This document shows, one piece after another, positions 28,518 to 64,000 of a stretch of 64,000 nt of DNA. Each line of letters begins with the position of its first letter. Within the stretch, counting starts at the first letter, position 1. Origin of the DNA: Isurus oxyrinchus (taxonomy: Eukaryota); the NCBI GenBank assembly GCA_026770705.1, contig JANJGN010000071.1, positions 1,302,001 to 1,366,000 of the forward strand, written 5' to 3'. The position numbers and the translations under genes were made by a program. The notes under the pieces were generated by a model. It saw nothing but the letters and a program-made list of their open reading frames with translations, ran no database searches and was not told the origin of the DNA.

Positions 28518-28574
28518 CGTGTCCGGGGAATCCACAGATTTCTCAATCGTCGAAGAACCTAAAGCAGTGTCAAC
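28518..28574 (-). CDS. hamp: Hepcidin exon 2 (pro region)
   Basis: ctttttgcAG acceptor and GTAGGT donor; 57 nt, phase 0-0; VDTALGSSTIEKSVDSPDT. Confidence 0.82.
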
Positions 28575-30210: not shown

Positions 30211-30410
30211 CGCTGAGGAGGGATTGAAAACAAGAATGAGAATTTCAGGGGAAATGACAGAAGGAAATGATGTTAAATTCATAGAGGGCGACAATATTAA
30301 AGGCACGAACATAATAATATCAAACTGCGGAAGTGACCAGTCTATCTGGGTGGTAGATGTAGAGTCATGTGCAAGAAACACCTCACCCAGAGGGACATCT
30401 CTTAGCTTAC

Positions 30411-30503
30411 CCTCGACAAGGAGAAGAAGTGACTCAGCTGCAGGGAGAGCAGCAAAGTCAGAGTGAACAAGACAAGTCGCCATTTCATCTGGGAGCTTCC
30501 CAT
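30411..30503 (-). CDS. hamp: Hepcidin exon 1 (signal peptide)
   Basis: ATG 30503; MGSSQMKWRLVLFTLTLLLSLQLSHFFSLSR then GTAAGC donor; 93 nt, phase 0. The 31+19+38 aa, all-phase-0 layout matches the vertebrate HAMP structure. Confidence 0.85.
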
Positions 30504-30790: not shown

Positions 30791-31169
30791 ACATAGCAAA
30801 AACAGAGGGGCTGGTTCTTATGTCGGCAAATCAGGTGAACCGCATGCCCCCTAACCCCTTACTCCTCTCATTGCTACACTTACTATTTTACAAATTGTGT
30901 GCGTTGCTTTTATTTTGGACAAGGGGCCTCGAGGGGGAACTGATTTACGCTGAGGTTTAAGGGTTAACAGCCATGTCATGTGTTGATTGGTCAGTGTTTA
31001 CCATGTGGAGACTGTCTGTCACCAGCTTTGTTCATGGTTTATCCAGGAACATTGAAGGGCATGAACGTTCTTGCTTTGTATGGAACAAGTCACCAACTGG
31101 GTTCAGTCATCGACTCAGACTCACATCAACATAAACTGGCTTCTGACAGGTAAGTTTCTATTACATGAG

Positions 31170-35816: not shown

Positions 35817-38800
35817 NNNNNNNNNNNNNNNNNNNNNNNNNNNNNNNNNNNNNNNNNNNNNNNNNNNNNNNNNNNNNNNNNNNNNNNNNNNNNNNNNNNN
35901 NNNNNNNNNNNNNNNNNNNNNNNNNNNNNNNNNNNNNNNNNNNNNNNNNNNNNNNNNNNNNNNNNNNNNNNNNNNNNNNNNNNNNNNNNNNNNNNNNNNN
36001 NNNNNNNCACTCTTTTGCACAAACACTCTTTCACGCACACACATGCACACACACACGCACACAAACGCACAAACTCACTCACACACAAACCCTCACACAC
36101 ACACAGACACAAACATTAGCACACACACACACACACTCACACATGCACACATACTCTCAAACACACACTGTTTTGCACAAACACTTTCTCTTTCACACAC
36201 ACACATACACACACACTCTCTCTCTCACACACATGTTCTCTCTCACTCCCTGTCTCAAACACACAATCTCCCCCTCCCTCAAACACTCACACCATCTCTT
36301 TCTCGCACACTCCCTCTCTCAAACACACACACCCTCTTTCTCAAACACACACACACACATGATCTCACACACACACTCTCACATACACAAACACTCTCTC
36401 ACAGACACACACTCTGTTTTGCACACACACTATCTCACACGCACATTCTCTCTATCTTTCTCTCTCACACATAAATTCTCTCTCACTCTCACAGACGTTC
36501 TCTTTCTCTCACACACACTCTCTCTCTCTCACACACAAGCTACCTCCCTCTCTCATGCACACACACTCTACCTCTCTTTTGCTCTCTCACACATACACAC
36601 TCTCAGTCTCTCACACATACATTGTCTCTCTCTCTCACATAAACGCACTCTCTCTCTCTGAGATGGAAGGTTGGGATTTTGAGACCGTCTCAAGGTTTCA
36701 GCTTAAAATGCGGACGGACTCTTCCCAGTGAGGGAGTGCTGCACTGTTGGAGGGTCAGTACTGAGGGAGTGCTGCACTGTCAGAGGGTCAGTACTGAGAG
36801 AGTGCTGCACTGTTGGAGGGTTAGCACTGAGGGAGTGCTGCACTTCCAGAGGGTCGGTACTGAGGGAGAGCTGCACTCCCAGAGGGTCAGTGCTGAGGGA
36901 GTGCTGCACTCCCAGAGGGTCAATACTGAAGGAGTGCTGCACTCTCAAAGGGTCAATGCTGAGGGAGTGCTGCACTGTCAGAGGGTGGGCACTGAGGGAA
37001 TGCTGCTCTGTCAGACCTGCCATATTTCAGATGACATTTGAAATTAGCAACATGCCTCATGTATAATTATATATCATCAGCTCAAAATAAATAGATTATT
37101 CCTGTACGTTTCACTTTACTGTAAATTGTTTGCAGTTTCATTTCCTTAGAAACCAGGCTTGTGTGATCACTATTTTTAAATAACGTTAATAATAAAGATG
37201 CAACAATCCACACGCACACATGTACACACACACACACATTCACTCACAAGGGTACATAGACAGACACACACTCACNNNNNNNNNNNNNNNNNNNNNNNNN
37301 NNNNNNNNNNNNNNNNNNNNNNNNNNNNNNNNNNNNNNNNNNNNNNNNNNNNNNNNNNNNNNNNNNNNNNNNNNNNNNNNNNNNNNNNNNNNNNNNNNNN
37401 NNNNNNNNNNNNNNNGTTAGAGTCCAATAAAAATTTAAAAGAATATATGATTAATACAATTGCTTGTCTTTGAGGTGCAGATTGTTGACGTTTGCAGCTG
37501 TTCAAGGTTAATTGGTTTCCTGTGGCATCCTGGTGGTGATTTGATTCAGATTTGCACTTTGTTGAAGATGCGCTGTTAGCTTCAGAAAGAGAGAGAGAGA
37601 GAGAGAGAATTTCTGCTCTTTTCCAGCAGTGTTTTTGAGTGACTGCCATCTTTCTTTTTCCTCCTACTTTCTCTTATATCTGCTTGACAGAACCTGTTGT
37701 TAAACTCCTGTCTGTATATTCCCAAAGGGAATTCGATCAGCATGTCTTGCATTCATTGTCGCAGACCAAGTAATCCCTTTTTTGATCTTTGCATCTCTGA
37801 AACATTTGATGCATTTCAAGATATAAATCAACAGGAGATGGAGTCATTTCATCCTCCACAAGGGGTTTTGAATGACTGATGAATATCTGCATGGTGAGCA
37901 GTTCCCATTAGCTTGATAGACCTACAGTGATCAGAGTCCAGCGCTTTGCATTTTTAATGGAGCCCCTGTTTCAAGTGGACCCTGACACACCTCAGTGAGA
38001 ACTTTCATGCAACATGTCTGTAGTGCAATTCATTTGAAGCTTTCCAGAGAAGTGATCAAGTTTGCAGTATCAGCAATCAGGTGACTCGTGACAGCCATTT
38101 TTGATCAATGCCTAATCTTGTACTTTTGAAAAACAGGTCTCCTTTAAACAGTTCAATACGTTTTTGGCTCGTTGGTTAAGTTGAAGGAAGCTCTGTTATG
38201 ACATAACAGATGGTAAATGCTGAGCTGTTCAAATCCTGGAGGGAAACTTGAAACAACTGTCACAACTAATTTCCAACTTGTATGTTTTGAGATGTGGGCT
38301 TTGAATTCAGTAGTAATGAGATTAAGATGTTTAAGAGGTAATTATGGTTGGTTGACAAAAAGGGTTTAAAATATATTTTCCCCCAAATGCAATTTCCAAA
38401 GCAAGTCTCTTTGATTGTTAAGAATGAACCAATTAAACCACGTATGGTGGAGTCAAAGAAAGAGTAAGTTTATTAGTTACCTAACTGGAGGAAAAATAAT
38501 NNNNNNNNNNNNNNNNNNNNNNNNNNNNNNNNNNNNNNNNNNNNNNNNNNNNNNNNNNNNNNNNNNNNNNNNNNNNNNNNNNNNNNNNNNNNNNNNNNNN
38601 NNNNNNNNNNNNNNNNNNNNNNNNNNNNNNNNNNNNNNNNNNNNNNNGACAGACAAATGCGCANNNNNNNNNNNNNNNNNNNNNNNNNNNNNNNNNNNNN
38701 NNNNNNNNNNNNNNNNNNNNNNNNNNNNNNNNNNNNNNNNNNNNNNNNNNNNNNNNNNNNNNNNNNNNNNNNNNNNNNNNNNNNNNNNNNNNNNNNNNNN

Positions 38801-43883: not shown

Positions 43884-44132
43884 TCAGTTTTTCTGGAACC
43901 TGATCTGTGCGTATTCCGTGTCCTCGCTCCTGTGCACAGTCCTGTCACCGCCGGGCAGCTTTGAAAAGTTGATGTTGGCGTAGAAAAGCTCGTCGGGTTT
44001 GTCGGGGTTTCCATGTCCAACATCGCCTCCCACTGGACCTTCAGAGAGACCCCGGGGAGCTGGGGTCTCCCCCTCACTAGTTGTGTCTCTGGTTGTGTTC
44101 TGGGGCTCAGTAATCAGCACGTTCTGTTTGCC
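43884..44132 (-). CDS. Terminal cytoplasmic exon with ITIM and ITSM-like motifs (inhibitory Siglec, gene C)
   Basis: ctctgtAG acceptor, phase 0; GKQNVLITEPQ...PDELFYANINFSKLPGGDRTVHRSEDTEYAQIRFQKN*. LFYANI is an ITIM and TEYAQI is TxYxxI, as in CD33-related Siglec tails. Confidence 0.9.
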   Translation of the reverse strand, partial: GKQNVLITEPQNTTRDTTSEGETPAPRGLSEGPVGGDVGHGNPDKPDELFYANINFSKLPGGDRTVHRSEDTEYAQIRFQKN

Positions 44133-45180
44133 CTACAGAGAAATAGAAACAGAAGACATCCTCACATCATTTACTGGCACTGATAGGGTTAAGTTATTCT
44201 GCAGCCTCGTTACTGTCAGTCATGTCTCAATGGGTTTAACCCTCTTTTTCACTCTCTTTCTCTGTCTCCTTTTTTTCAATCTCTTTCTCTGTCTCCCTTT
44301 CTCTCTCTCTCTCTTGCTTTCTCTCTCTATTTATCATGTAATCTCTCTCGCTATCGCAGACCTGAGTCTTGAAGTCCTATGTTACCATCCCAATCATGAG
44401 ATTTGTGCCCCATTATTCACAAACACAGACACACAAAGAACCTCACGCCAATGAAGGAATTTTATTGAAGGGCGACACTGCTACAGTGTTGGAAATGTGG
44501 CCATGGGACCAGATAAGATGGTAAACATGGTCAGCATTATACAACTATTCTGAAAGAGGCATCTCGAACACTGCAATGTTCTCTCAGTGCTCTCTGCTGA
44601 CAGTGCAGCTCTCCCTCGGAACTGCCCCTTCAAGAGGGCAGCACCCCTTGAAAATGGACTCTTTGACAGTGCAGCACTCACTCAGTACTGTCCTCAGTAC
44701 TGACCATCCGACAGTGCAGCACTCCCTCAGTACTGGCCCTCCGACAGTGCAGCACTCCCTCAGTACTGACCATCCGACAGTCCAGCACTCCCTCAGTACT
44801 GACCCTATGACAGCGCAGCACTCCCTCAGTACTGACCCTCTGACAGTCTAGCTCTCCCTCAGTACAGACCCTCTGACAGTGCAACACTCCCTCAGTACTG
44901 ACCTTCTGACACTCCAGCACTCCCTCAGCACAGGCCCTAGGACAGTGCAGCACTCCCTCACTACTGACATCAGGTGCCTTGTCATTATTGCGTTCAGGTT
45001 TCTGGTCAAAGAGCGAGTGATGGAGGGAAGAGGGGGAGGGAGCGAGAGACAATGCTACCTACTGAGCCATATCTGACTCCACAGGTAGATATCTGTGGGT
45101 AACCTGGCTGGGAATCTGGGACATGTGTTGTCTACACACTGAGATTGAAGCTTTGGAGTGAGTGTAAACAGCTCCTGTAC

Positions 45181-45262
45181 CTGGTGCTTCACAGAGAGTG
45201 GACTGGGGGTCAATACAATGTCACTGGTCCCTGAAACTCTCTCCTCCATCGCTGTCTTTCTC
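45181..45262 (-). CDS. Juxtamembrane cytoplasmic exon (gene C)
   Basis: 82 nt, phase 2-0; RKTAMEERVSGTSDIVLTPSPLSVKHQ; links the TM and ITIM exons exactly in frame. Confidence 0.82.
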
Positions 45263-45799
45263 CTGCAATAACACAATATCACACTGTGGTTATCATATAG
45301 CAGAGAGTCAGTGCAGCACAGACACAGAGCCCAGTGTAACCTTACACCAACGAATGGACTGTCTCTAGTTCCAATAAGGGATATCAGCGTGACATCACTA
45401 TAATGGAAGTGTGTCATGTGATCCAATCTTAGTTTGACTTTTGCTTTGAGCAGAACACACACTCACAGCTCTGATGCCTTCAATCTTTCTCCATATGTAT
45501 AACTGTTCTCGTGCCGAGTCTTGATAAACAAATCATTAACATTCTCACCCAATCCCTGTGAGCGATTGGTGCTTTGTTTCTTGTACAATAAATAAGCCTA
45601 AGGTATAATATCATTATAATGACACGCCATATCTTTGACCCCCCCTCCACCCCTGCTCTTCCCCCCATAGCCCTTCAAATGTTCCCCCTTCAAGTATTTA
45701 TCCAATTCCCCTTTTGAAAGATCCTATTAAATCTGCTTCCAGCGCCCTTTCAGGCAGCACCTTCCAGATCACAGCAACTGATTATTATTCATCTGGATA

Positions 45800-46290
45800 A
45801 CGGGCAATGAAAAACACTGTCTGGATCGTAAGGGACAAAAGAGACCAGTTACGGAGAGGCATCTAGTGCTTAACACAAGGGAAACAATCACCGACTTCAG
45901 GAAAGAACATTGAAGCAAATATTTATCCAGGAGTAATCGTGCAGAGTGAGGAATCTCTGGGTCTCGTGATTGTTTACTGGATACAGGACAATGAAAGGTT
46001 CTCTCCGGATCATAGTGGACACAGGGACCAGTTACGGAGAGGGACCTGGTGCTGATCCCAAGGGAAACAATCACCGACTTAAGGAAAGAACATTGAAGCA
46101 AATATTTATCCCGGAGTAATCGTGCAGAGTGAGGAATCTCTGGGTGTCGTGATGGTTTACCTGGATACAGGACATTGAAAGGTTCTCTCCGGATCAGAGT
46201 GGACACAGGGATCACTTACAGAGAGGGACCTGGTGCTGATCCCAAGGGAAACAATCACCGACTTAAGGAAAGAACATTGAAGCAAATGTT
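45800..46290. repeat. ~183-bp tandem repeat, about 2.5 copies
   Basis: gaaacaatcaccgactt recurs at 45881, 46064 and 46248. Confidence 0.9.
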
Positions 46291-46323
46291 TATATTAAAA
46301 TCAAGTTAAATCTTCAGACTTAC

Positions 46324-46420
46324 TTTCTCACACAGATGAAGATGAAGATTCCAGCCAGGAAAACACTCAACATGATCCCAGCCGTGAACAATCCTACTGT
46401 CCATTTACTGGAGTCTCTAC
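46324..46420 (-). CDS. Uncharged transmembrane exon (gene C)
   Basis: tttttacAG acceptor and GTAAGT donor; 97 nt, phase 1-2; RDSSKWTVGLFTAGIMLSVFLAGIFIFICVRK. Confidence 0.88.
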
Positions 46421-47235
46421 CTGTAAAAACAGCCATTAATTACTGCACTACAGGTTTACAATGATGCTCCGATGTATCTCGAGAAGCGATACACTCACTC
46501 AGTGTTTAAATACTCATTCTCGGGCAATGCTGACATTTATTTTCCATCCCTAGTTTCCCCTTGAGAAGGTGGTGGGGGGTCTTCCTCCTGAACCACTGGT
46601 TTGTCCCAAACTGGGAGACCAGTTCAGAGGGCAGGTAAGAGTTAACCATGTTGGTGTCTGAGACTGGAGTCACATCCACATCGAGACATGCTTCCCTCCC
46701 TTAAAGGGTATGTAGTCTCTACACATGTAACAACCAACCTCACTGAAATAATCGACTATCAGGTCATTATCACACGGTGGTTTGCGGGATCTTGCTGTGC
46801 ACAAATCAGTACCTGTGTTTCCTACATTACAACAGTGAGCTCACTTCGATAATGCTTCACTGGCTGTTGAATGTTTAGTAATTTCTAAGCAATTTATGAA
46901 TACAAGTGTTGCATTTCAAAGTAATCCATGTAACATTTATATATATTTATCAATTAAAGAATGAGAAGTTCAGCAATTAAAAGGGTTGTTCAGGACAGTT
47001 AGAGAGAGAAAGGTCGTCAAGTACGGAGATTGGAAACGAAGACCTGACAGCCTTGTCCTGACAACCATTGAAGGAGAAACTGAGAGCAAAAACAGAAAGG
47101 GAGAGGAAAAATTGGATGTGTGGATAACGTGGACTGAGCGAGGATTGAAGAAAACTGGATTAAAAACAACACGATCCCAATGGCTCCACGGAGACCACGG
47201 AGACAACAAACAAACAAATGTATCTCCACACTCAC

Positions 47236-47517
47236 GTTCCACAGTGATGGTTATGAACCCCTCCACTGCTCCATGTTCATTCTCTGCCACACACTGATAG
47301 TCTCCAGTGTCCCTGGATGTAACGTGAGGAATCACCAACCACAGCTCATTGTTGGAACTTGTTCTGTTCATTGGGACATTAAGATGTCGCCACGTCAGGT
47401 TAGAAGCTGGGAAGCTCTCGACAGAGCAGATTATCACTGCAGAATTCCCCTCAATTATATTGATCGATGAAGCGTTAATCATACCAAGTGAAGTAAATGA
47501 GAGATCCTGTGGTGCAT
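47236..47517 (-). CDS. C2-set Ig exon 3 (gene C), open
   Basis: 282 nt, phase 1-1; DAPQDLSFTSLGMINASS...ICSVESFPASNLTWRH...GDYQCVAENEHG...TVE. Confidence 0.9.
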
Positions 47518-48208
47518 CTAAAAACAAATCAAGTGTTTAATGTGAGCAAACCTATTGCACAGCAAGACTCCATGCATCATATCTCTGTATCTGATGTCTG
47601 AATGCATTTCCAGGTAACTTCCCTCAGGATAACGTCTTATGCCACATTTTTAATGGACACTGCCTATGTAAACTGTCACACTGCAGTTGCATTCTCCCAC
47701 CAGTAGAGGTGTTGTCCATCTAGAATGAAAGAAGCTTGCTTTCACATCCTCAGGATTTCGCAAAGGGCTGGACAGGCAATGAATTGTACTTGATTGATGG
47801 AGCACTGAGGGGTAAATCTACAATTCTCTGTTCAGGAGGTTGCTCATCCAATTCAGGGTCTTGTTGATCTGGAGTTTACCTTCCTTCAACACAGAATCGG
47901 AGCTGATACCAAGACTCCAGTGCGGCACTGAGAGAGGAGAGGGAACTCACGTGTGTATATCTGTGTGTTTGTGTTTCTGCACATGTGAGTGTGTTTGTGT
48001 GTGTATGCACACATGTGTCTGTGTGTGTGCATGCGCGTGTGTCTGTGTGTCTAGGTCTGTCCATGAGTGAGAGTATGTGCATGTGTGTGTCTATGTGTGG
48101 GCATGAATGTGTGTGTGTGTTTGAGATGGGTGTGTATTTTCCTGTGTATGTGCTTGTATGTGTATGACTGTGTGTGGATAATTATGCATGTGTGTGCCTA
48201 CAGGTTTC

Positions 48209-48241
<33 letters not shown>

Positions 48242-48300
48242 CTGTGTGTGTGTGTGCGTGTGTGTGTGTGTGAGTGATGTTGGAGTTTGCAGTAACTCAC

Positions 48301-48581
48301 GTTCCACAGTGATGGTTATGAACCCCTCCACTGCTCCATGTTCATTCTCTGCCACACACTGATAGTCTCCAGTGTCCCTGGATGTAACGTGAGGAATCAT
48401 CAACCACAGCTCATTGTTGGAACTTGTTCTGTTCATTGGGACATTAAGATGTCGCCACATCAGGTTAGAAGCTGGGAAGCTCTCGACAGAGCAGATTATC
48501 ACTGCAGAATTCCCCTCAATTATATTGATCGATGAAGCGTTAATCATATCAAGAGAATTAACTAAGAGATTCTGGGTGCGT
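48301..48581 (-). pseudogene. C2-set Ig exon 2 (gene C) with a 1-bp deletion near the acceptor
   Basis: 281 nt rather than 282; the canonical acceptor gives xAC GCA CCC AGA ATC TCT TAG; the rest of the domain is open in the shifted frame. Confidence 0.8.
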
Positions 48582-49335
48582 CTAAAAGAAATAAAGATTT
48601 TAATGTGAGCAAGCATAGTGCACAGCAAGACTCCATGCATCATCTCTCTGTATCTGATGTTGGAATGCTTTTCCAGGTACCTTCCCTCATGAAAAATTAC
48701 TGTCATATTTATAATGGTCACTTCCTATGTAAACTGTCACACTGCAGTTGCTTCCTCCCACCAGTAGAGTTGCTAACCCTCTAGAATGAAAGAAACATCC
48801 TTTAACACTCTCAAGATGTCCCCAAGGGCTTGATAGGCAATGAATTGTATTTGATCGATGGAGCACTGAGGGCTAAATCTACATTTCTCTGTTCAGGAGG
48901 TTGCTCATCCAATTCAGGGTCTTGCTGATCTGGAGTTTACCTTCCTTCAGCACAGAATGGGAGCTGATACCATGACTCCAGTGCAGCACTGAGAGAGGAG
49001 AGGGAGCTCACACTTGTGTGTGTACTTCTGCACGTGAGTTTGTATTTGTGTGTATGCGCGTGTCTGTCAGCACATGTGTGGACGCGTGTGTGTGTGTGTG
49101 TGTGTGTGTGTCTGTGTGTGTATGTCTGTATGTCTGTGCTTGAGGGAGTGTGTGTGCATGTGTGTGTCTTTGTGTGCGCATGAATGTTTGTATGTGTGAG
49201 TTGAGTTTGTGTGTGTTTCTGTGTATGTGTTTGAACGTATGTTTGTGTGTAAGTGTGCATGTTTGTGTCTACACATGAGTGTTTTTGCATGTGTGAGTGT
49301 GTGTGTGAGAGATGTTGAAGTCTGTGTACACTCAC

Positions 49336-49617
49336 ATTCCACAGTGATGGTGATGAATCCCTCCACTGCTCCATGTTCATTCTCTACCACACACTGATAG
49401 TCTCCAGTGTCCCTGGATGTAACGTGAGGAATCACCAACCACAGCTCATTGTTGGAACTTGTTCTGTTCATTGGGACATTAAGATGTCGCCACGTCAGGT
49501 TAGAAGCTGGGAAGCTCTCGACAGAGCAGATTATCACTGCAGAATTCCCCTCAATTATATTGATCGATGAAGCATTAATCATTTCAAGCGAAGTAAATGT
49601 GAGATTCTGTGGAGCAT
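49336..49617 (-). CDS. C2-set Ig exon 1 (gene C), open
   Basis: 282 nt, phase 1-1; DAPQNLTFTSLEMINASS...GDYQCVVENEHG...TVE. Confidence 0.9.
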
Positions 49618-52600
49618 CTAAGAACAAATCAAGTGTTTAATGTGAGCAAGCAGCGTGCACAGCAAGACTCCATGCATCATCTCTCTGTATCTGATGTCTG
49701 TATGCATTTCCAGATACCTTCCCTCCATATAACTTCCACTGTCAAATTTATAATGGGCACTGCCTCTGTAAACAGTCAAACTACAGTTACATTCTCCCAC
49801 CAGTAGAGGTGCTGTTCACCTAGAATGAAAGAAACTTTCACATCCTCAGGATTTTGCCAAGGGATTTACTGGAATGAATTGTATTTGATCGATGGAGCAC
49901 TGAGGGGTAAATCTACAATTCTCTGTTCAGGAGGTTGCTCATCCAGTTCAGGGTCTTGTTGATCTGGAGTTTACCTTCCTTCAACACAGAATCGGAGCTG
50001 ACACCGAGACTCCAGTGCAGCCCTGAGAGAGGAGAGGGACCTCGCGCGTGTTTATGTGTATGTGTTTGTGTTTCTACATATGTGAGTATGTTTGTGTGAG
50101 TATGCATGCATGTGTCTGTGTGTGCATGTGTGTATGTGTTTGCGCAAATGTGCGTGTGTCTTTGTGTATATTTCTGTGCATAAGTGAATGTGTGTACATG
50201 TGTATGTGTATGTGTGTGCACGTGTGAGTGTGTGTGTGTGAGTTGAGTGTGTGTATGTTTCTGTGTAGGTTTTTGCACGTGTATGACTGTGTGTAAATGT
50301 GCATGTATGTGCCTACACATGAGTGTGTGTGTGTGTGTGTGTGTGTGTGTACATGTGTGCATGTGGATTGTCGCATCTTTATTATTAACGTTATTTAAAA
50401 ATAGTGATCACACAAGCCTGGCTTCTAAGGAGATGAAACTGCAAACAATTTACAGTATAGTGAAATGTACAGGAATAATCTATTTATTTTGAGTTGATGA
50501 TATATAATTATACATGAGGCATGTTGCTAATTTCAAACATCATCTGAAATATGGCAGGTCTGACAGAGCAGCATTCGCTCAGTGTCCACCCTCTGACAGT
50601 GCAGCACTCCCTCAGCATTGACGCTTTGAGAGTGCAGCACTCCTTCAGTATTGACCCTCTGGAAGTGCAGCACTCCCTCAGTGTTAACCCTCCAACAGTG
50701 CAGCACTCCCTGAGTACTGACCCTCTGACAGTTCAGCACTGCCTCAGTACTGACCCTTTGATAGAGCAGGGTTTCCCTCAGTACTGACCTCCTGACAGTG
50801 CAGCACTCCCTCAGTACTGACCCTCTGACAGTGCAGCACTCCCTCAATATTGACCCTCCAACAGTGCAGCACTCCCTCAGCACTCCCTCACTGGGGAGAG
50901 TCCATCTGGGTTTTGAGCTGAAACCTTGAGACGGTTTGAAAACCCCAACCTGCTGTCTTGGAGAGAGAGAGAGAGAGAGTGAGTGCGTGTGTGAGAAAGA
51001 GAGACAATGTGTGTGTGAGAGAGTGACAGTGCGTATGTGTGCGAGAGAGAAGGATAGAGAGAAAGAGAAAATGTGTGAGAGAGCAAAAGAGAGGTAGAGT
51101 GTGTGTGTGCATGAGAGAGAGAGGTAGCTGAATTGTGTGAGAGAGAGAGTGTGTGTGAGAGAAAGGGAATGTCTGTGTTAGAGAGAGAGCTTATGTGTGA
51201 GAGAGAAAGAAAGAGAGAGAATCTGTGTGTGTTAGATAGTGTGTGTGTGAAAGAGAGAGTGTGTATGTGAGAGAGCGTGTGCGTGAGAGCGTGTGTGTGT
51301 GTGTGTTTGAGAGAGAGGGTTTATGTGTTTGAGAGAAGGAGTGTGCGAGAGAGGGTGTGCGTGTTTGAGAGGGAGTGTGTGTGTTTAAAAGAATGAACAA
51401 GGGAAAATGTGTGTGTGTGTGTGTGTGTGTCTGCGTGTGCATTCTGAATGAGCTGAGTTACAGAGTGAGCGAAAGGTACAAAAATAGTGTGAGAGAGAGG
51501 GAGAGATACAGAGTGGGAGAAGGAGACAGGGGAGAGAGAGGGAGAGAGACAGGAAAAGGGAGAGAGGAGAGAAAGATTGGGAGAGAGGGCAATTGAGAGG
51601 AAGAGCAGGAGAGAGAGAGACAGGGAGAGGAGGAGTGGATGAGAGGAAGAGAGAGAGAGATATGGAGCAGGAGAACACCTCCTCCGGTCCCGATGTTCCT
51701 CCAAAATCTCTGACATTACTGCATCTCCCGGGTCCCCCTGATTCCCATCGCTCCACCATTGGTGGCCGTGCCTTCAGCTGCCTGGGGCCCTGAGCTCCGG
51801 AATACCCTCCCTTAACCTCTCTGCCTCTCTCTCTCTCTCTCCTTTAAGACGCTCCTTAAAAACTGACATCTTTGACCAAGCTTTTGGTCACCTATCCCTA
51901 ATATCTCCATATGTGACTCAGTGTTAGACTTCTCTCTGATTTACGCTCCGGTAATGTGGGCTGGGACATTTTGCAATGTCAGAGGCGCTGTGTAAATGCA
52001 AGTTGTGAGTGTTATGTGGAAGGGAGACCCCAGGCGGCAGTCAGTGCCAGAGACTGGAGTCATTGTGCGCAGACCGTATCTAATCTCTCCGAATGCACAA
52101 TCGGTTTGACTGTCAGCCAAAGCACTTTTGATATTTGATCCTTCTAACTGTTTATAACCAGGCCTACATCATACACCGAGAGGCTGGTTAATCAACAGAC
52201 ACCTTAGAGGATCGAGTGAAAGACAAAGAGGACTTGCATTTCTCTATAAAAACAAAGAAAACTGCGGATGCTGGAAATCCAAAACAAAAACAGAATTACC
52301 TGAAAAAACTCAGCAGGTCTGGCAGCATTGGCGGAGAAGAAAAGAGTTGACGTTTCGAGTCCTCAGAAGGGTCATGAGGACTCGAAAAGTCAACTCTTGC
52401 ATTTCTCTAGCGCCTTCCAACACATCAGGACGTCCCAAACTGTTTCGCAGACAATCAAGTGCTTTTTTTTCTTTCATGTGAGGTCACTGATGTACTGTGG
52501 GAAAAGAATCAGCCATTGGCGCACAGTAAGATCCCACAGACAGCAGCATGATAATGACCAGCGCGCTCCCAGTACTTGCACTGCAAGAGTCAGTTCAGGG

Positions 52601-53371
52601 TGTCTGCTCGATTCTCTGCAACTCTCAGCTCTGAGTTAAAAGGACCACCAGGCGTAATTGAGGAATGACCGAGCTGTCGGAGGGTCAGTACCGGCGGGGG
52701 GGCAGGACAGTCGGAGGGTCAGTACTGAGGGGGTGCTGCATTGTCAGACGGTCAGTCTTGGAGTGCTGCATTGTCAGAGGGCCAGTACCGGCGGGGGACT
52801 GCACAGTCGGAGGGTCAGTACTGAGGGGTTGCTGCATTGTCAGACGGTCAGTACTGAGGGATTGCTGCACAGTCGGAGGGTCAGTACTGAGGGGGTGCTG
52901 CACTGTTGAAGGCGCTGTCTTTCAGATGAGATGTTAAACTGAGACAACATCTGCCCTCTCAGATGGATGTAGAGGATTCCATGGCCACAATTTAGATGAG
53001 GTGCGTCAGGAGTTGGGGGTATGTGTGGAGGGGGTGGTGGGGGCTGGATGGGGTGGAGTTATGTCTGCTTTCCTGGGGCAAACATTTATCCCTCAACTGA
53101 CATTGGTAAAAAACTGAAAATCGGGGCCATTATCACATTTCTGTTTGTGGGATCTTGCTGTGCGTGAATTGCCTGCTGCGTTTCCTACATTACAGCGGTG
53201 AGCTCACTTCAGAAAAAGTCCTTCCTTCAGCTGTGGAACACTTTGGGCCATCCTGAGGAGGGGAAAGGCGCTAGAGAAATGCGCCATCCTCCTTCCAATG
53301 ACGCGCCTGATTGAAATGATGCCTTCTTTCTTTCCGGAATGTTCTCACCTATTGTGCTCCTGCTTTTCCAG

Positions 53372-53488
53372 GGCTCCTTGCTGCAGCGCCAGAAGAGAAT
53401 GGGCAGACAGCAGCTCTGCAGATTCTGCTGTAACTGCTGTAATTGGAGAGAACCAAATGAGACTTGTGGTCTCTGCTGTAGATATTAG
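53372..53488 (+). pseudogene. hamp: Orphan hepcidin exon 3 (second paralogue; exons 1-2 not present in the window)
   Basis: cttttccAG acceptor; GSLLQRQKRMGRQQLCRFCCNCCNWREPNETCGLCCRY*; open, 8 Cys, canonical RQKR site. Confidence 0.85.
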
Positions 53489-53935
53489 ACCCTGGCCTCA
53501 TTCACGCAAGGTCATCCTGCACCATGCCACAGCCTCTCCCCTCCTTATCTACTGCTTAGCAATCTATTTCACACAGGCCCTGTTCATTAATTCCAACTGA
53601 AACTTTACCTGCGTTTTACAGCAGGGAAAGAAGCCATTTGGCCCATCTGCTCCATGCTGGTGTTTCTGCTCCACACGAGTCTCCGCCCACCCCTTCTCCA
53701 TCTCACCCCATCACCATATCCTTCTATTCATTTCTCCCTCGTGTGTTTATCCAGCTTCCCCTTAAATACATCGACACTATTCACCTCACGTGACTGTGTT
53801 TGTGTCTGTCTTTATGAGCGTGTGTGTGTGACTGTCAATATGTGTGTGTTAATGTGAATGTGTGTGATTGTGTCAGCGTGTGTGTGTGTATGTGTGACTG
53901 TCAGTGCGTGTCAATGTGAATGTGTGTGATTGTGT

Positions 53936-53975
<40 letters not shown>

Positions 53976-55969
53976 CTGTGTCAGTGTGTGTCAATGTGAA
54001 TGAGTGAGTGTGTCAGTGTGTCTGTGTGGGTGTGTGTGACTGTGTCAGTGTGTGTCAATGTGAATGAGTGAGTGTGTCAGTGTGTCTGTGTGGGTGTGGG
54101 TGTGTGAGTGTGCAAGTGAATGTGTGAGGAATCTTATGACTAAGTCATTTGAATGGATGTTACTGGGGTTAATGATAGTTAAAATTCAGAGAGATGTAAA
54201 GCGGGCTCCTGATTTTGCTGCTTTATGCTCCCGGGCACAGATTGACCCCGACAATGTGTTCATGATTCACCATCATCTTGTCGGGACTTTAATTGTAAAG
54301 ATTATGATTTGTGAAAAAAAATGAATAAACAACTTTTGTCTTCACAAAGTGTCTGGCTTGGTATTTCAGGCTACTTGTCTCTCCCTCACCCTCCCCCCCC
54401 ACCATGCCCCCCACACCAGGGAACAATTGTCCCCCCTTCCTCTGAAGTTCTGGGTAAAGATCAGCTTTATTCAATGCAAGCTGTTCCGACATCGAGAACG
54501 TTGTTACAAATATCTCACAAAGGGCACACGCCATGATAGCCCACTTTCAACAGATTTTACCAGTTGACCAGGTTGAAAACCTTTTCATAAACCACAACGT
54601 AGGTGTTCAATTCTTGCTGCTGTTTGCTTAATGTTCTCATAACTGCTATAACCTCTCTAGTTCCACTACATAACAACACCAACATAAATAAACAGAAGCA
54701 GGAGTAGGCCTTTTGGCCTCCCAAGCCAGCTTGTCCATTCAATTTGAACCTGGCTCCTGCTGAAAGTTATTTAAGTTGAAGCGATAAAGCCATCAGGTGC
54801 AGGGATTAAAATGTAAGCAAAGGAAAAATAATACTTAGACATGAGATTTAAAATCAGTTTCTGTGAAGAATCATACTGAGGCCATTGCACTGGATTCCTT
54901 CTTTCCAGAGTGAAGGGTTTAAAACTAGGAGTCACATTCAGCAGCTGCGTTGTCTTCTCTAGTTGACTATTTGGAGGTTGCCTATAGATGTGAATCAGCA
55001 GGTCAGCAGCTTTGGGGAGTGAGTGAAGGTCCCTTTTATTTACAGGATCTGCCACAGGGTGTGCAGGAATATTCCTGCTGAATTCTCCATCCTTGCATTC
55101 ATGAAGGGTTTGAAACTGGAAGTCATATTCAGCAGCTGCAATGGCCTCTGTAGCCAACTGTCTGGAGGTTGCCTGTACATGTGGACTCAGCAGGTCAACA
55201 GCTTTGTAGGGTGGGGGGGGTGCACGGGTAGTAAAGGTCCCTTTACTTTAAAGGCTCTGCCAGTGCAACACTTGATGATCCTGGGTCAAAATCATGTATC
55301 ACCCTCCCCAACAGCACTGTGGATGTGCCCGATGGAGGTTCCTTGGCTTCGACAAGCAGCCTACCAGCTCTGCTCTCAATTCCTCTTCGCACTTGCTTCC
55401 TTCCTCCTCTGGTCTTTACTTTGTTATAGTGTTAGTGTCCGCTCTGCCTTTTTTGTTGCTTTCCCAATTCTTCCCACCAACTCTCTCTGGCTTGATCCTT
55501 CTCTGTGCTCATCTCATTGGTTTGGGTTTCTATCCGTTCATTGACCTGGTGTAATCTGAAACTGGTGCAATCAGGTAGGGGTGGGGGGGTTGGCGCTGGC
55601 CGTGGGTGGTGATACACGGCTACCTTTTTACCAAAATTCTTTCACGGGATGTGGACAGCGTTTGTTACCTGTTCCTGACTGACCCCTTGAGAAGGGGGTG
55701 CTGAGCTGCCTTTTCGAAGTGCTGCAGTTCGCCTGGTTGACTGCTCTGTGGCGGGTTTTGATATAACTCAGTAGCTTGCTCGGCCATTTCAGGGGCCAGT
55801 TAAGAGTCAACCACATTGCTGTGGGTCAGGAGTCACACGTAGGCCAGAATGGGTAAGGACGGCAGGTTTCCTTCCCCAAAGGGCATTAGTGACCCAGATG
55901 GGTTTTTGCAACAATTGGCCTTAGTTTCATGGTCACCATTACTGAGACTAGCTTCGCATTCCAGATGTC

Positions 55970-57925
55970 ACATCCAGTCATGGACAATTAAACAACTCAC
56001 TGGAGGAGGAGGCTCCACAAATATCCCCATCCTCAATGATGGAGGAGCCCAGCAGATCAGTGCAAAAGACAAGACTGAAGCATGCGCAACAATCTTCAGC
56101 CAGAAGTGCTGAGTGGGTGATCCATCTCGGCCTCCTCCTGAGGTCCCCAGCATCAGAGATGCCAATCTTTAGCCAATTCGATTAATTCCACGTGATATCA
56201 AGAAAGGGCTGAAGGCACTGGATATTGCAAAGGCTCCAGGCCCTGACAATATTCTGGCAATAGTACTGAAGACTTGTGCTCCAGAACTTGCTGCGCCCCT
56301 AGCCAAGCTTTTCTGGAATTTTCTAGTACAGCTGCAACACTGGCAACTACCCGGCTATGAGGTACGTCCTGTACACAAAAAGCAGGACAAATCCAACCCA
56401 GCCAATTCCCCAGCAGTCTATTCTTGATCATTACTAAAGTGATGGAAGGGGTCATCAACAGCGCTTGCAAGCAGCACCTGCTTACCAAGAACCTGCTCAC
56501 TGACGCTCAGTTTGTGTTCCACCAGGATCATTCAGCTCCTGGCCTCATTACAGCCTTGGTTCAAACATGCACAAATGAGCTGAACTCCAGAGGTGAGAGG
56601 GACTGCCCTTGACATCAAGGCAGCATTTGACTGAGTGTGGCAAATCAAGGAGCCCGAGCAAAACTGGAGTCAATGGGAATCGGGGGAAAACTCTCCGCTG
56701 CTTGGAGTCATACCCTGCACAAAGGACGATGGTTGTGATTGTTGGGGGTCAATCATCTCAGTTCCAGGACATCACTGCAGGAGTTACTCAGGGTAGTGTC
56801 CTAGGCTCAAACATCTTCAACTGCTTCATCAATGACCTTCCTTCCATCATAAGGTCAGAAGTGGGGATGTTTGCTGATGTTTGCACAATGTTCAGCACCA
56901 TTCACGGCTCCTCAGATACTGAAGCAAGTTATGTCCAAATGCAGCAAGACCTGGACAACATCCAGGCTTGGGCTGACAGGTGACAAGTAACATTCATGCC
57001 ACACAAGTACCAGGCAATGACCAGCTCCAACAAGAGAGAATCTAATTGAAGGTGCAGAAAATTTGGATTTATGTTCAAGAGCCAGCCAGGACCAGCAGCT
57101 AGGGCGCCAAAGCGTACACATCCTTACGTGAAAACTTAAAAACCTGTACTAAGGGCTCAGTTGGAAATTTGCAATGAGGAAATGGGAGACACACACACAA
57201 GGACACAGGGTGACTCAATCAAGAAATGGGGAAGGTTATTTCACACCGTCCGATGGCCTTGAACCACATCCAGTCAGCCTCCGGTAACCTTTTGTATCGA
57301 ACAAACATAGATTCTTTGCTGTCTCAAAAGGACAATAGCCAGTCTCTGCCCTGTAATTACTGAACAAGAACACAATTATCAGCCCACCGGAGGGTCATTG
57401 TGCTGTGGCCTTTGTCTAACTAATACCATTACCTTGTAACTGAGAGTAAAAAATATATAAACTGTGCTCATTTGAACCTCGGTGGAGAAGCGCCTGTACT
57501 GCCCAGCGTTTGCTCCCCACATGCGTAATAAAGGAACCACTTGAATATTGCATCTGGAGTCCGAGTGTTGAAATTTTGTACCAGAATATCCCACAGACCA
57601 TTCATAACCATCGCCCCTTGGCATTCAATGGCATTACCATCAATGAATCCCCCAATATCAACATCCTGGGAGTTACCATTGAGCAGAAACTGAACTGGAC
57701 CAGCCATATAAACACTGTGGCTGCAAGAGCAGGTCAGAGGCTGGGAACCCTGCAGACAGTAACTCACCTCCTGACTCCCCAAAGCCTGTCCACCATCTAC
57801 AACGCACAAGTCAGGAGTGTGATGGAATACTCTCCACATGCCTGGATGAGTGCAGCTCCAACAACACTCAAGAAGCTCGAAACCATCCAGGACAAAGCAG
57901 CCCGATTGATTGGCTCCCCTTCCAC
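55970..57925 (+). mobile_element. CR1-type LINE RT fragments (mirror of 22.6-23.7 kb plus an extra 3' part)
   Basis: GVTQGSVLG..FINDLP..MFADV; ILGVTIEQKLNWTSHIN...YNAQVRSVMEYSPHAW. Confidence 0.88.
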
Positions 57926-59424
57926 AGAGCTAGATAGATTCTTGATTAACAATGGGGTGAAAGGTCATTGGGGGTAGGCAGGAATGTGAGGTTGAGGTGA
58001 CAATCAGATCAGCCATGATCTTACTGAATGGCGGAGCAGGTTCGAGGGGCTGAGTGACCTACTCCTGATCCTAACTCAGATATCCATATGTTCTCAAAGG
58101 CAAATGGGGATGGGCAACAAATACTGGCCTAGTCAGCGACACCAACATCCCTGAAATGAATAAGAAAAAAATGTATCAATCAATTAAATTTATTGATTAA
58201 TCGAATTGAAATTCCTCCAGCTGCCGTGGTGGGATTTGAACCCGTGCCTTCAAAGCATTCACCTGGGCCTCTGGATCACTGGCCTAGTGCCATTCCCATG
58301 GTGCGACTGTCTGCTATCATCATGGCTCTTTCACATCGATGTGGAAGTCCTGATAACAGAAGCATTGGACGAGGTACAGAAAGGTGACAAATCAGGAGCT
58401 CCATTGCTCAATATGAACGGATAATAAAGATAAATGAACATAAACCTTCCAGTCGCTAATTAGGGAGTCACTGTGGAACCCATGAGTCCCTCGCAGCGCT
58501 ATTGCAACCTTCTGGATCCCCAGTAGGGGACTCGGGGTGCAGCTGTGTCTTCCTCATCATTTGGAAAAGCCGGAATTGTTCGGGTGCCCCTTCAAACAGG
58601 CCGAAGATGCAGTGGGTGATGTCTCCCACAGGCCCTGGGAGACCTCCCCTGCCAATTTGTTTTGTAGCTTATTCTTCAACTGCGACATTGGATCAGCTTG
58701 AAAAAGGGTGGGGCTGAGGCAATGCCACCAGGTAAGCGTCTATTCCCTCACACGTCACCCCCCCCCCACCCCCGTAACCATCACAGTCCCTCCCATCGTG
58801 CTGGAGGAGCATAATGTGCACATTCCCCTCCTTCCAATCAGTCTCCTCCCTTCCTCTCTAATCCTTGATCTTATTGTGTTCGGGGTTGACATCCCAGTCC
58901 TCCTCCCTAGACTGTCTGATGTTGACATCCCAATGCCCCATGTAGACCTGACCTCTCTCCAACTAGAGGTCCATTGTACTGTGACTTACAGAGACCACCG
59001 GCCCCCCTCGATTCCCACCCCCACCCCTACCCTCTATATTACCTGCTCCCCACTGACAGGCTGCAGATGCCTCCCCTGACTGGGATTGTGCCACCTGCGG
59101 CCTAGTATCAAGCCACCCACCCCCAGGACCGACGTGTGTGAGGGACTGACCACGTCCTGCACACCATGCTGGGCACCACCAACCCAGGACTGCCAGGCTC
59201 TCCCCACCACACTGGACTGGGACTAGAATAGGCGTGCCAAGCACAGCTCTCTAAATCGTGGCGCAGACCCACAGCACTCGCAATGTTTTGTGGCCCGAAT
59301 CCTTGCTGAGGAACTGCCCAGCACTAAAAGCAAAAAAACTGCGGATGCTGGAAATCCAAAACAGAAACAGAAACAGAAATACCTGGAAAAACTCAGCAGG
59401 TCTGGCAGCATCGGCGGAGAAGAA

Positions 59425-60270
59425 CTGAGGTAGTGCAGCACTGTCGGAGGTTCAGTACTGAGGGAGTGCTGCACTGTCGGAGGGTCTGAGCTGAGGGAGT
59501 GCTGCACTGTCGGAGGCTCTGAACTGAGGGAGTGCTGCACTGTCGGAGGGTTTGAACTGAGGGAGTGCTGCACGGTCGGAGGGTCTGAGCTGAGGGAGTG
59601 CTGCACGGTCGGAGGGTCTGAACTGAGGGAATGCTGCACTTTCGGAGGGTTTGAACTGAGGGAGTGCTGCACTGTCGGAGGCTCTGAAATGAGGGAGTGC
59701 TGCACTGTCGGAGGGTTTGAACTGAGGGAGTGCTGCACTGTCGGAGGGTCTGAACTGAAGGAGTGCTGCACTGTCGGAGGGTTTGAACTGAGGGAGTGCT
59801 GCACTGTCGGAGGGTTTGAACTGAGGGAGTGCTGCACTATCGGAGGGTATGAACTGAGGGAGAGCTGCACTGTCGGAGGGTTTGAACTGAGGAAGTGCTG
59901 CACTGTCGGATGGTTTGAACTGAGGGAGTGCTGCACTGTCGGAGGGTCTGAACTGAAGGAGTGCTGCGCTGTCGGAGGGTCTGAACTGAGGGAGTGCTGC
60001 ACTGTTGGAGGGTCTGAACTGAGAGAGTGCTGCACTGTCGGAGGGTCTGAACTGAGAGAGTGCTGCACTGTCGGAGGTTCTGAACTGAGGGAGTGCTGCA
60101 CTGTCGGAGGGTCTGAAATGAGGGAGTGCTGCACTGTCGGAGGGTTTGAACTGAGGGAGTGCTGCACAGTCGGAGGGTCTGAACTGAGGGAGTGCTGCTC
60201 TGTCGGAGGGTTTGAACTGAGGGAGTGCTGCATTGTCGGAGGGTCTGATCTGAGGGAGTGCTGCACTGTC
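59425..60270. repeat. Expanded 33-bp satellite array (about 25 copies)
   Basis: (gagggagtgctgcactgtcggagggtttgaact)n; the paralogous site at 20633-20850 has only about 6 copies. Confidence 0.95.
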
Positions 60271-61001
60271 TAAAGAACATTGTACAAATTGCACAAAATT
60301 TAATCTGATGCCTGTGTCTCATGCTAACATGAAGTTCATGCACACAACAGGAATATTTCTCTCTGTTTCTCTGCAGCAAGACAGCTTTGGTATCACACCA
60401 CCCACTGGCAAGAGTGTGCAGCTACAATGTGACATGTTTACATTGGAAATTTCTATTATAAAGATGGACAGAGGAATTCATCTGATTGGAATACGTGACA
60501 ACAGGAAGCTATGTCTTTGAGCCAAGAATTTTGCAGCAAAACAAGAATTTTAATCTTTAAATATCTACAGAACAGGCTGAGCATTTTAATCACTTGAGTT
60601 AATCAATGTAATTTTATTCATAACCCAAATGCTTCTTACAATCTATCGCAGCATGAAAAAGGTGCAGCATTCAGAAAGCACATTCCAATCAGAGAACAGA
60701 GTTTAGCAACGGCACATTTCTGTTCATTCCTACTCGATGAACAATTTCAAAAGGAAATTGGACGGAAATTGGAAATAAATTTGCAGGGATACGGGGATAG
60801 AGCGGGGGATGGGACTGAGTGCATTGCTTTACAGAGAGACAGCATAGACTCAATGGGCCAAATGTCCTCCTCCATTGCTGGAATGACTCGATGATACGGA
60901 GATGATTCTAACCAGGACACTGACCAGTTTCTTTACAACTTAACACAACATCACACGTTATTTGTCCGCACTGACTGACCAGATTGTTGCTGTACAAAGC
61001 T

Positions 61002-61141
61002 TCAAACAGTCTGTCGACTTCCTTTCACTGTTTGTCTCTCCCAGACACAGACTCCAGCGATAGTGATAACCACAGCCACAAGGAATATCACAGCTCGTAT
61101 TCCCAGGATCAGGATCACGTGCAGAATCTCTCCTCCACTGT
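61002..61141 (-). CDS. Terminal TM exon with intramembrane Arg (activating type, gene D)
   Basis: Same peptide as 19064-19203: SGGEILHVILILGIRAVIFLVAVVITIAGVCVWERQTVKGSRQTV*. Confidence 0.85.
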
Positions 61142-62255
61142 CTAGAGAACACACAGAAAGAAATCATCACTGACTCTCCGCTTTCAATCTCTCACTCTGG
61201 CTGAACAATCAAGCTTCATATCACTGCAACATTTGCTGTAATATTGACCCATCCACTGGGATTCAATGTGGAATGAATGTTTTCATTGTAAACACTCTAA
61301 GAGTGGACAATCGGTACTTTCCCCTTAGCGTGGAACATTGGTGAGAATGGATCATTGTGCTGTTGGACTCCCTGTCCAATGTTTCTCTCCATCGCTGTGT
61401 ACAGGATTGTGCTGTAGAAAATTCTGGAAACGTTTAGTGCAGGGTGGAAATCCATCTCGGACGTGTGTGCGAATTGGGCAGTATCGGGATGGACTCCCCC
61501 ACGGACATACACCCCCCGCTTAATAAACAGTTCCAATCTTTACCCAGAGAGAGGGGAGAATGTGGAACTCGCTCCCACAGGGAGTGGTCGAGGTGAATAG
61601 TAGCAAATTAGGAAGTGAAATTGCTTGAAAAGCTTGGAGATGCAAGGGTTAAGTGTTACCGTGCTACCACTGGTGGGAGAGTGTAACTACAGTGTGACGT
61701 TTACATAGGCAATCCCCATTATGAACATGGACATCATGTGAAAAATGGGCACTGGAAAGCTGAGAACTTGATGTAAGCTTTTCACCAACAGGAATTCCCT
61801 TCCTAAACCTCTCCACTTCCCTCTTATTCTCAGATACTCAAACAAAATTTCACACAAAATCACGTAAGGAGGAATTGGGACTGGTGACTGGTCAAAGAGT
61901 TAGATTTCAGGAAGGTTCTTAAAGTAGGATAGAGAGTTGGAGAGGCAGAGAGTATCTGTGAGTATCTCTGTGCATCTGAGTGTCTGTAATAGACTTTGCA
62001 ATTTCCATATTCTTCCATAAATATGAAAGGGAACACAAATCCCAGAATCCAGGTCAACTCTCCGGTGCAGCACTGAGGGAGGTCAGGTAATCCACAGGGG
62101 AGTATGTGCTAGTGTGTTTGTTTGTGAGTGTGTCTTTGTGTGTGCTCATAGATGTGGGATTGTGTGTCTGCAGGTGTCTATTTAAGGCTGTATATTTATG
62201 TGTGTTTTTGTAGTGTTTCAATCTGAGAGAGATGTTGAAGTTTGTCTTAACTAAC

Positions 62256-62391
62256 GTTCCACAGTGATGGTTATGAACCCCTCCACTGCTCCATGTTCAT
62301 TCTCTGAGCACACTGATAGTCTCCAGTGTCCCTGGATGTAACTGTGAGGAATCACCAACCACAGCTCATTGTTGGAACTTGTTCTGTTCAT
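62256..62391 (-). pseudogene. 5'-truncated C2 exon relic (mirror of 17244-17379)
   Basis: Same truncation point; also carries a +1 and a -1 indel that scramble the GDYQC motif. Confidence 0.82.
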
Positions 62392-62731
62392 TGTGATATT
62401 CAGATGTCAGGACCGGACTCAACAAGACAGATTGCAGGTTTACCAACAGAAAGTGAACAACAATTTATATTTAAAGGGAAGAAAGTGCAGGTTAATCAGC
62501 AAGTGGTCTCTGATTGGAGGAGGTGTTGCCATGGAAAATAATGTGTGTGAGATGTAAAGTTTAGACAGCTTGTCCCTTCATTCAGCAACAATCAAATAAA
62601 GATCAGTTAACTTCTATCGACTGTGAAGCACTTTGAGAGGCATGAGAATGTGGATACTGAGAATGGGCTGCACTGTCAGAGGGTCAGCGCTGAGGGAGTG
62701 CTGATGTAGAATGAATGGTGTATGTAATTAC

Positions 62732-63028
62732 CTTGCACATTTAGTACGAGGGTCCGCTCCGATGAAACAGATGGATATCTCACTCTGCAGCTGAGATTGT
62801 GTCCGTGGTGTTTGAGTGATGGGATCAGGGTCAGAACAGAAGTATAGTTCAGAGTGACACCATGCTGAGTTACAGTGTTTGAGACTGATCCAGGTACGTC
62901 AGTGGGAGTGTCCCAGGTTAAGACAGGTGCTGCTGTTCCATTGCACGTTGTGTTGAAGGTGCAGATTACATCCACAGGCTTTCCTGCAATAATTTCAGCA
63001 GGGAATATCGTGGGTTTATCTGTGAAAT
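62732..63028 (-). CDS. Siglec domain-2 C2-set exon (gene D), open
   Basis: 297 nt, phase 1-1; DFTDKPTIFPAEIIAGKPVDVICTFNTTCNGTAAPVLTW...LSCRVRYPSVSSERTLVLNVQ. Confidence 0.9.
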
Positions 63029-63756: not shown

Positions 63757-64000
63757 CAGAAACGTGAAGCTGGGTTACAGGGTAATAGTTATAGCTCGGA
63801 CCATTGTCAAATTCTATTCTGAAAAAATAAGGTCCTGCATCTCCCCGTGTGATGTTGTTTATAATCAGGGAACAGTCGCCATCTTTCCGGTCTCCAGACA
63901 GCCGGGTCCGATGGTGGAACCGTGGTAACTCGTGACTGTGATCCTTGGAGTGAAAGGCTGTAGACGATGTTCTCCATTCCTCATTATTAAGCCAGACTCC
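63757..64000 (-). CDS. Siglec V-set exon, 3' part (gene D), open; continues beyond the window
   Basis: GVWLNNEEWRTSSTAFHSKDHSHELPRFHHRTRLSGDRKDGDCSLIINNITRGDAGPYFFRIEFDNGPSYNYYPVTQLHVS then GTAAGT donor; essential Arg retained, no stop. Confidence 0.9.

Follow-up and report, generated by a model that had tools for sequence, protein, structure and literature searches.

Can one receptor head be spliced to either of two signalling ends? The question is raised by a 64,000-nucleotide stretch of DNA from Isurus oxyrinchus (contig JANJGN010000071.1, positions 1,302,001 to 1,366,000; the window). Here an activating Siglec-like gene, gene D, built of a V-set domain, a C2-set domain and a transmembrane (TM) anchor with an arginine, is followed 11 kb on along the minus strand by gene C, a headless module of three immunoglobulin (Ig) exons, a TM exon and a tail with an immunoreceptor tyrosine-based inhibitory motif (ITIM). 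A first-pass annotation of the window had proposed that the promoter of gene D could drive both V-C2-TM(Arg) and V-C2-C2-C2-TM-ITIM isoforms. The geometry of the exons does fit this, but positive evidence is nil (0 of 4 RNA runs). It seems probable that gene C, lying behind gene D, no longer functions: it would be what is left, without a promoter, of a V-less Siglec-like inhibitory unit, a piece of birth-and-death debris. The features of the two genes, all of them on the minus strand, are these:

63757..64000, minus: gene D V-set exon, 3' part only, running off the window; contains the arginine motif YFFRIEF
62732..63028, minus: gene D first C2-set exon, phase 1-1, donor AAG/GTAATT
62250..62408, minus: decayed 3' half of an I-type Ig exon, without acceptor and frameshifted; a sister gene, gene B, has one too
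60980..61141, minus: gene D anchor exon with intramembrane arginine (LILGIRAVIF); stop ends at 61002, donor for the 3' untranslated region (UTR) at 60980
60585..60738, minus: gene D 3' end; point of a 688-bp deletion at 60737/60738, AATAAA at 60613, ATTAAA at 60585
49336..49617, minus: gene C Ig exon C2a (I/C2-type), open, phase 1-1
48301..48581, minus: gene C Ig exon C2b, 281 nt, with a 1-nt frameshift near its 5' end
47236..47517, minus: gene C Ig exon C2c, open, phase 1-1
46324..46420, minus: gene C uncharged transmembrane exon
45181..45262, minus: gene C cytoplasmic exon 1 (cyt1)
43884..44132, minus: gene C last exon (cyt2), with LFYANI and TEYAQI; relatives are 53-90% identical

What gene C lacks is a beginning. 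Protein and nucleotide searches of the window found no leader, 5'UTR, V or first C2 exon between 49617 and 61002, in agreement with the earlier statement that leader and V are absent there; leader matches fall only at 7841 and 10055, V matches only at 15523 and from 63757 on, and first C2 matches only at 16619 and 62732. Its C2, TM and ITIM exons had been described as open. For C2a, C2c, TM, cyt1 and cyt2, all with AG/GT splice sites and compatible phases, that description stands, but C2b is one base short: read from the normal acceptor it meets a stop after 5 codons, and a cryptic AG 20 nt downstream would give an in-frame exon of 261 nt (start 48561). The tail motifs LFYANI and TEYAQI we take to be ITIM-like and ITSM-like (immunoreceptor tyrosine-based switch motif), respectively. 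With no first exon, leader or ligand-binding domain of its own, and with C2b disabled, gene C is by its predicted structure a gene-fragment pseudogene. Its neighbourhood is in decay as well: the C2b frameshift is accompanied by a stop in the V exon of gene B (15802), stops in the Ig exons of a further gene, gene A (612, 1863), and a truncated hepcidin gene. Codon comparisons among the Ig exons give 4-9 non-synonymous and 2-8 synonymous codons per pair, too few to judge selection.

The V-set exon of gene D matches the profile at E 1.6e-5 (a partial exon, just under the curated cut-off), and its YFFRIEF presumably holds the essential arginine on the F strand of the V domain, in a putative sialic-acid site. 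The C2 exon matches the C2-set_2 profile at E 5e-8, and the proteins closest to it carry Siglec-, CD33- and MAG-like names in Carcharodon and Cetorhinus (90-95% identity). An N-terminal V-set domain followed by a C2-set domain makes gene D Siglec-like in its predicted architecture; gene C, taken alone, is without V. The leader and about the first 41 V codons lie outside the window, which shows gene D only in part.

In RNA, heads of the D type are seen joined to the anchor. The gene D region (60300-64000) was compared with four RNA runs (three samples, two organisms) at 88% likeness; runs X18 and X20-X23, with small word shares, were left out of the comparisons. The V-to-C2 joint (63757-63028) occurs with canonical ends in all four, as does the joint from C2 to the Arg anchor (62732-61141), with CT..AC ends; one 850-nt contig of X19 covers C2, anchor and 3'UTR together. 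C2a and its acceptor were compared, at 96% likeness, with the contig sets X6, X7 and X8, which come from one sample, and with X19. A splice from C2 to C2a was found in 0/4 runs, a weak negative in that the samples lack some of the window's letters, and the complete table of seven loose ends at the C2a acceptor has no row with C2-type letters, although a junction contig might be missed if no more than about 30 of its letters fell on the C2a stretch. The comparison that the first-pass annotation had put forward, 62732-49617 against 62732-61141, gives the anchor joint in every run and the C2a joint in none, for D-type transcripts of samples that may not carry the haplotype of the window.

The 3' end of gene D bears on how gene C could be reached at all. 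In relatives the Arg-anchor exon is not the terminal one, an intron of the 3'UTR following the stop. The donor at 60980 sits 22 nt past the gene D stop, and the 850-nt X19 contig and X17 splice it to an exon with 218 extra letters; the acceptor used in gene B (19945) lies exactly 218 nt before the end of the 688-bp block that is absent from gene D, where the usual acceptor is deleted. An X6 contig (60705-60907) spans the deletion point with two differences, so a D-type 3' end is transcribed. A poly(A) signal had been noted near 60613, and AATAAA is indeed there; 60566, where the X19 contig stops, is close to the ATTAAA at 60585, a contig end being a hint only. The path onward to gene C holds six further minus-strand stops of the AATAAA/ATTAAA type, among them AATAAA at 58189, 55035, 54466, 50483 and 50378, and an antisense exon.

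Where gene C came from can be read from a comparison with the other half of the window. Positions 64000-51455 (minus) align with 15646-28034 (plus); that is, they are the two arms of an inverted duplication:

15646..28034, plus: sister arm, with gene B (V-C2-Arg anchor), hepcidin exon 3 and intron 2; matches 64000-51455
19226..19945: 3'UTR intron region in gene B, whose acceptor (19945) is lost from gene D
51454..51455: junction at which hepcidin intron 2 meets a homologue of the sequence from 36188 on; the sister arm has about 8.15 kb more
36188..37248, plus: copy, on the sister side, of the intron piece that precedes gene C; ends just before an N gap
50326..51454, minus: likely what remains of the first intron of the V-less unit, with a microsatellite, a 33-mer array and a 193-bp unique piece

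The arms are about 90-99% identical overall, rising to about 99% over the final kilobase up to the junction; the differences per aligned columns are 26/244 in V, 8/297 in C2, 0/162 in the anchor exon and 6/119 in hepcidin exon 3. The longest identical runs measure 346 and 254 nt, the arms being otherwise 2-10% divergent.

At the junction the match to hepcidin intron 2 (332/335 columns identical) ends abruptly at 51455: the arm alignment stops sharply at 28034/51455 and resumes at 36188/51452. The breakpoint had been placed within CT/CA repeats. Its hepcidin side is as described, but the breakpoint itself is gap-free and complex, lying between repeat tracts (40 nt of it hold 32 distinct 4-mers, the flanking tracts 16-17), and the 40-mer spanning it occurs once in the window. 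The homologue of the far side is 36188-37248, which lies about 5.7 kb upstream of where the intact hepcidin gene starts, and the 193-bp unique piece is 95.9% identical to 37016-37208; no homology was found between the far side and the intron that follows the C2 exon of gene D. The simplest reading of the two arms is that a single deletion of about 8.15 kb likely occurred in the gene D arm. The other elements needed to follow what it would have taken are these:

26133..30488, minus: intact three-exon hepcidin gene (exons 30488-30411, 28574-28518, 26249-26133)
53372..53488, plus: orphan hepcidin exon 3 (the mature-peptide exon), open, acceptor intact, with a Pfam Hepcidin match
31123..31149, plus: divergent exon behind the hepcidin promoter, 3' end, with donor CAG/GTAAGT

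The lost block, 28035-36187 in the sister arm, contains hepcidin exons 1-2, as had been proposed and as the two arms would predict, together with a non-Siglec exon, ending at 31149, that stands about 0.6 kb behind the hepcidin ATG on the opposite strand, head to head with it. The first-pass annotation also had the deletion take the 5' half of gene C, which finds no support in that form: protein and nucleotide searches of the block, outside a gap of 191 N, found no leader, V or C2 exon. What was found is a different beginning. In three of the four runs (X6, X7 and X8) the loose end at the C2a acceptor is a string of 23-25 letters that matches 31123-31147 exactly and uniquely in the window (0 matches in 100 shuffles), where it is followed by AG/GTAAGT. 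The junction contigs of X6 and X8 extend 51 and 67 nt along the C2a side, unbranched. This RNA differs from C2a of gene C at 1 of 67 letters and an unspliced X7 contig from gene C at 4 of 110; the fourth run, X19, has an Ig-to-Ig join of a more distant paralogue (six differences). The D-C arm has no homologue of 30900-31170. A lost block without V or C2, and a C2a-type acceptor to which the exon ending at 31149 is spliced, make it most likely that the Ig-TM-ITIM module was V-less already before the deletion and started from the divergent exon. The presence of hepcidin inside the duplicated block, and the splicing of an exon behind its promoter to a receptor tail, is the new detail here.

An in-frame ATG at 31080 would place 23 residues ahead of the Ig exon, and these are not signal-like: their best 8-residue hydropathy reaches 1.0, where the true leader has 1.89 and hepcidin exon 1 has 2.6. 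A weak search, in which only 28 of the 40 query residues were exonic, found no longer protein with three 5-residue words in common with the peptide. Without signal-like character at its start, the divergent-exon transcript is probably non-productive. Between hepcidin exon 1 and the divergent exon lie a TATA-like word (30576) and a GGCGCC (30717), the sequence given as the BMP element of human hepcidin in PMC3879105; no STAT-type site was found in 30488-31150.

A series of five steps would account for these observations. First, a block carrying a V-C2-Arg-anchor gene and hepcidin was duplicated in inverted orientation, as its two arms at about 90-99% identity show. Second, a C2a-type exon is spliced from an exon about 0.6 kb behind the hepcidin start, the arrangement seen in the RNA of one related sample. 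Third, an Ig-TM-ITIM module already devoid of leader, V and C2 would have come under divergent transcription starting in the hepcidin promoter region. Fourth, to judge from the arms, a deletion of about 8.2 kb in the D arm would have removed hepcidin exons 1-2, the promoter region and the divergent exon. Fifth, gene D would splice its C2 exon to its own Arg anchor and end near 60570-60600, as transcripts of the D type or of paralogues are seen to do; gene C could then be reached only by leaky read-through.

Several observations weigh against regarding gene C as a dead remnant. The reading frames of C2a, C2c, TM and the two tail exons have stayed open, with good splice sites, which is what one would expect of a gene still functional or only recently lost. 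The window does not contain the Ig exons joined to the exon ending at 31149; these would be located within the N gap at 37276 or beyond it, or in another copy. A third copy elsewhere could be the source of the RNA, and the splice is known from one sample only. Window letters are missing from the RNA, at 62848 in the C2 exon of gene D from all four runs and at 49589 in C2a from X6-X8. The samples may therefore not carry the haplotype of the window, and the missing D-to-C join counts as weak evidence. Finally, contigs run past the hexamer at 60613, to 60511 (X7) and to 60303 (X6 and X17), the X6 contig that reaches 60303 having mostly B-type letters; together with the loss from gene D, in the 688-bp block, of the acceptor of the last 3'UTR exon, this makes read-through plausible, and termination of gene D may be leaky.

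The alternatives need the wider family for comparison, and 154 related protein models were examined. By its nearest proteins, Siglec-like models of Carcharodon and Cetorhinus, the source of the window is a lamniform shark. The family is modular. Its genes begin with a leader and at least one V exon, go on to a first C2 and to I-type Ig exons that vary in number, and close with an anchor of one of three types: uncharged with an ITIM tail, uncharged with another tyrosine tail, or Arg with a short tail. The first C2 is the exon preceding the anchor in 17 of the 19 Arg-anchor models and is present in 46 of the 57 with an ITIM tail. Similar ectodomains carried on an Arg anchor (genes D and B) or an ITIM-like tail (gene C) are, as predicted from the exons, those of paired receptors; coupling to an adaptor (DAP12/FcRgamma) and recruitment of SHP would be predicted from the motifs. 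That 0/19 Arg-anchor models have an ITIM tail is uninformative; the stop in the anchor exon bars both from one protein.

The reading from which the question started, that gene D skips its anchor, skips or re-frames C2b, and so makes V-C2-Ig-Ig-TM-ITIM as well as V-C2-TM(Arg), is unlikely. The earlier observation that gene D C2 ends in phase 1 (62732) and C2a begins in phase 1 (49617) is correct, and C2a, C2c, TM and tail are open; phase 1-1, being common to all the Ig exons here, is no evidence for the join. The predicted product would match natural architectures: model P0026 is built as L-V-C2-I-I-TM, P0132 follows this order but with additional Ig domains, and the V domains of both are among the three best matches to the partial V of gene D. 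The deleted UTR acceptor and the contigs that pass the first hexamer would also help such a transcript onward. Against this, no run in four has C2-type letters at the C2a acceptor; the acceptor of the anchor is 1.6 kb off with 16 pyrimidines in 20, whereas that of C2a is 13.1 kb off with 13 in 20; the four Carcharodon isoform models P0125, P0127, P0129 and P0020, of Arg-anchor genes, all end in the Arg anchor; and C2b is frameshifted. It is likewise improbable that a V-less ITIM module was first taken over by the rear side of the hepcidin promoter and that a second deletion then passed it to an upstream activating Siglec, so that one V-C2 head could take either the Arg anchor or the ITIM tail.

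An assembly artefact would remove the junction altogether: an 8-kb block would have been collapsed onto the sister arm, the join at 51455 would be false, and gene C would be an expressed copy with a divergent first exon. The window does have five N gaps between 35817 and 39974, one of which (37276) adjoins the sister intron piece; low-complexity tracts flank the breakpoint, the last kilobase of the arms before it is about 99% identical, and the RNA departs from C2a at a single letter in 67. The join, however, is gap-free and complex, with no overlap between the parent's continuation and the far side, and arms at 2-10% divergence were otherwise assembled apart. Four differences in 110 between the X7 contig and gene C, and 8 in 193 in the sister intron, fit a paralogue better than the same locus, and an artefact has a small chance of being the explanation. 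Very doubtful is the idea that the V-less unit is functional and co-regulated with hepcidin in the sister arm, as a V-less ITIM protein or a regulatory RNA, and that gene C has lost this role: a spliced transcript in three runs of one sample, the ATG at 31080 with its 23 residues, the GGCGCC and TATA-like word between the two exons, and the V-less I(n)-TM-ITIM models P0146 and P0149 (2 of the 57 with an ITIM tail) speak for it, but the 23 residues are not signal-like, their words occurred in no longer protein (a weak search), one 6-mer motif is no evidence of regulation, and the two models may be split annotations. Because they share their scaffolds with the tail-less P0022 and P0016, P0146 and P0149 do not prove that a headless gene is conserved.

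Several further observations concern the neighbourhood and relatives. The V exons of gene D (63757-64000) and gene B (15646-15892) differ at 26 of 244 positions and the C2 exons at only 8 of 297; the best matches of gene D V are mostly V domains of models without an Arg anchor, and gene conversion of the gene D head is possible on this comparison. Upstream of gene B V there are two leader exons (7841, 10055) and three exon-like copies (4041, 7273, 9480). The 3'UTR of the ITIM gene (43690-43858) is 76-79% identical to the 3'UTRs of the Arg-anchor genes (20142-20307, 60593-60732), and this homology suggests an origin of the activating genes from inhibitory ones through replacement of the tail. 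In gene A both Ig exons (484-765 and 1735-2016) are interrupted by a stop at the same codon, which CpG decay or conversion between units could explain. Both copies of hepcidin exon 3 (53372-53488, 26133-26249) encode eight cysteines, and in both a long loop carries an NET sequon. Between the N gaps, 37486-38194 and 38883-39610 are 83%-identical copies of an element of about 720 bp, possibly long terminal repeats. The Carcharodon model P0134 has LSHFFSLS, as at the end of hepcidin exon 1, directly before a Siglec V; this is possibly another hepcidin-Siglec join, or an artefact of the model.

Several known systems invite comparison. The isoforms of NKp44 share one anchor. Splice variants of NKp44/NCR2 and NKp30/NCR3 differ in signalling (PMC4682172), those of NKp44 by the presence of an ITIM (PMC5078064). 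A gene D with two tails would resemble them as one gene whose isoforms signal differently, but would require two alternative TM exons from genes 13 kb apart.

The first-pass annotation likened the locus to the human SIGLEC14/5 allele, in which the activating gene is deleted and plain Siglec-5 is made from the SIGLEC14 promoter (PMC4042635; also PMC6288428). The likeness is loose: in both, an activating gene stands upstream of an inhibitory one on the same strand and a deletion changes the possible promoter of the inhibitory tail. The shark locus, however, retains the Arg anchor and poly(A) signals between the two parts, its breakpoint lies in hepcidin intron 2 and not in shared V/C2 sequence, and its inhibitory part is headless; the deletion here did not fuse two homologous 5' regions, nor did it take away the activating 3' end. 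The primate paired Siglecs 5/14 and 11/16, with ITIM tail or charged anchor, inverted clusters and null alleles (PMC6288428, PMC2832619), have the similar ectodomains, alternative tail or positively charged anchor, and inverted arrangement in common with the shark genes. The shark family is an independent modular expansion, with copies of hepcidin in its duplicated block. KIR clusters contain fusion genes and the pseudogenes KIR2DP1 and KIR3DP1, and fragments may feed later fusions (PMC7516082). Fragments and fusions made by recombination in a repeat-rich cluster of paired receptors are common to both, and the shark locus resembles them more than it does the SIGLEC14/5 allele; the KIR cases are characterised by haplotype and transcript, the shark case by one assembly and RNA contigs of other individuals. 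By title and the start of the abstract, a search with subscription papers and supplements outside it, no paper was found on a shark Siglec-hepcidin block or on a receptor transcript divergent from hepcidin.

The divergent exon behind hepcidin is the finding most worth keeping. If gene D does splice to both ends, the locus would show how a pair of genes can turn directly into one switchable receptor, the paired receptor having collapsed into a single gene with alternative splicing. If gene C is a dead fragment, it would be another sign of birth-and-death evolution in the Siglec-like clusters of sharks, like that of KIR and the primate Siglecs.

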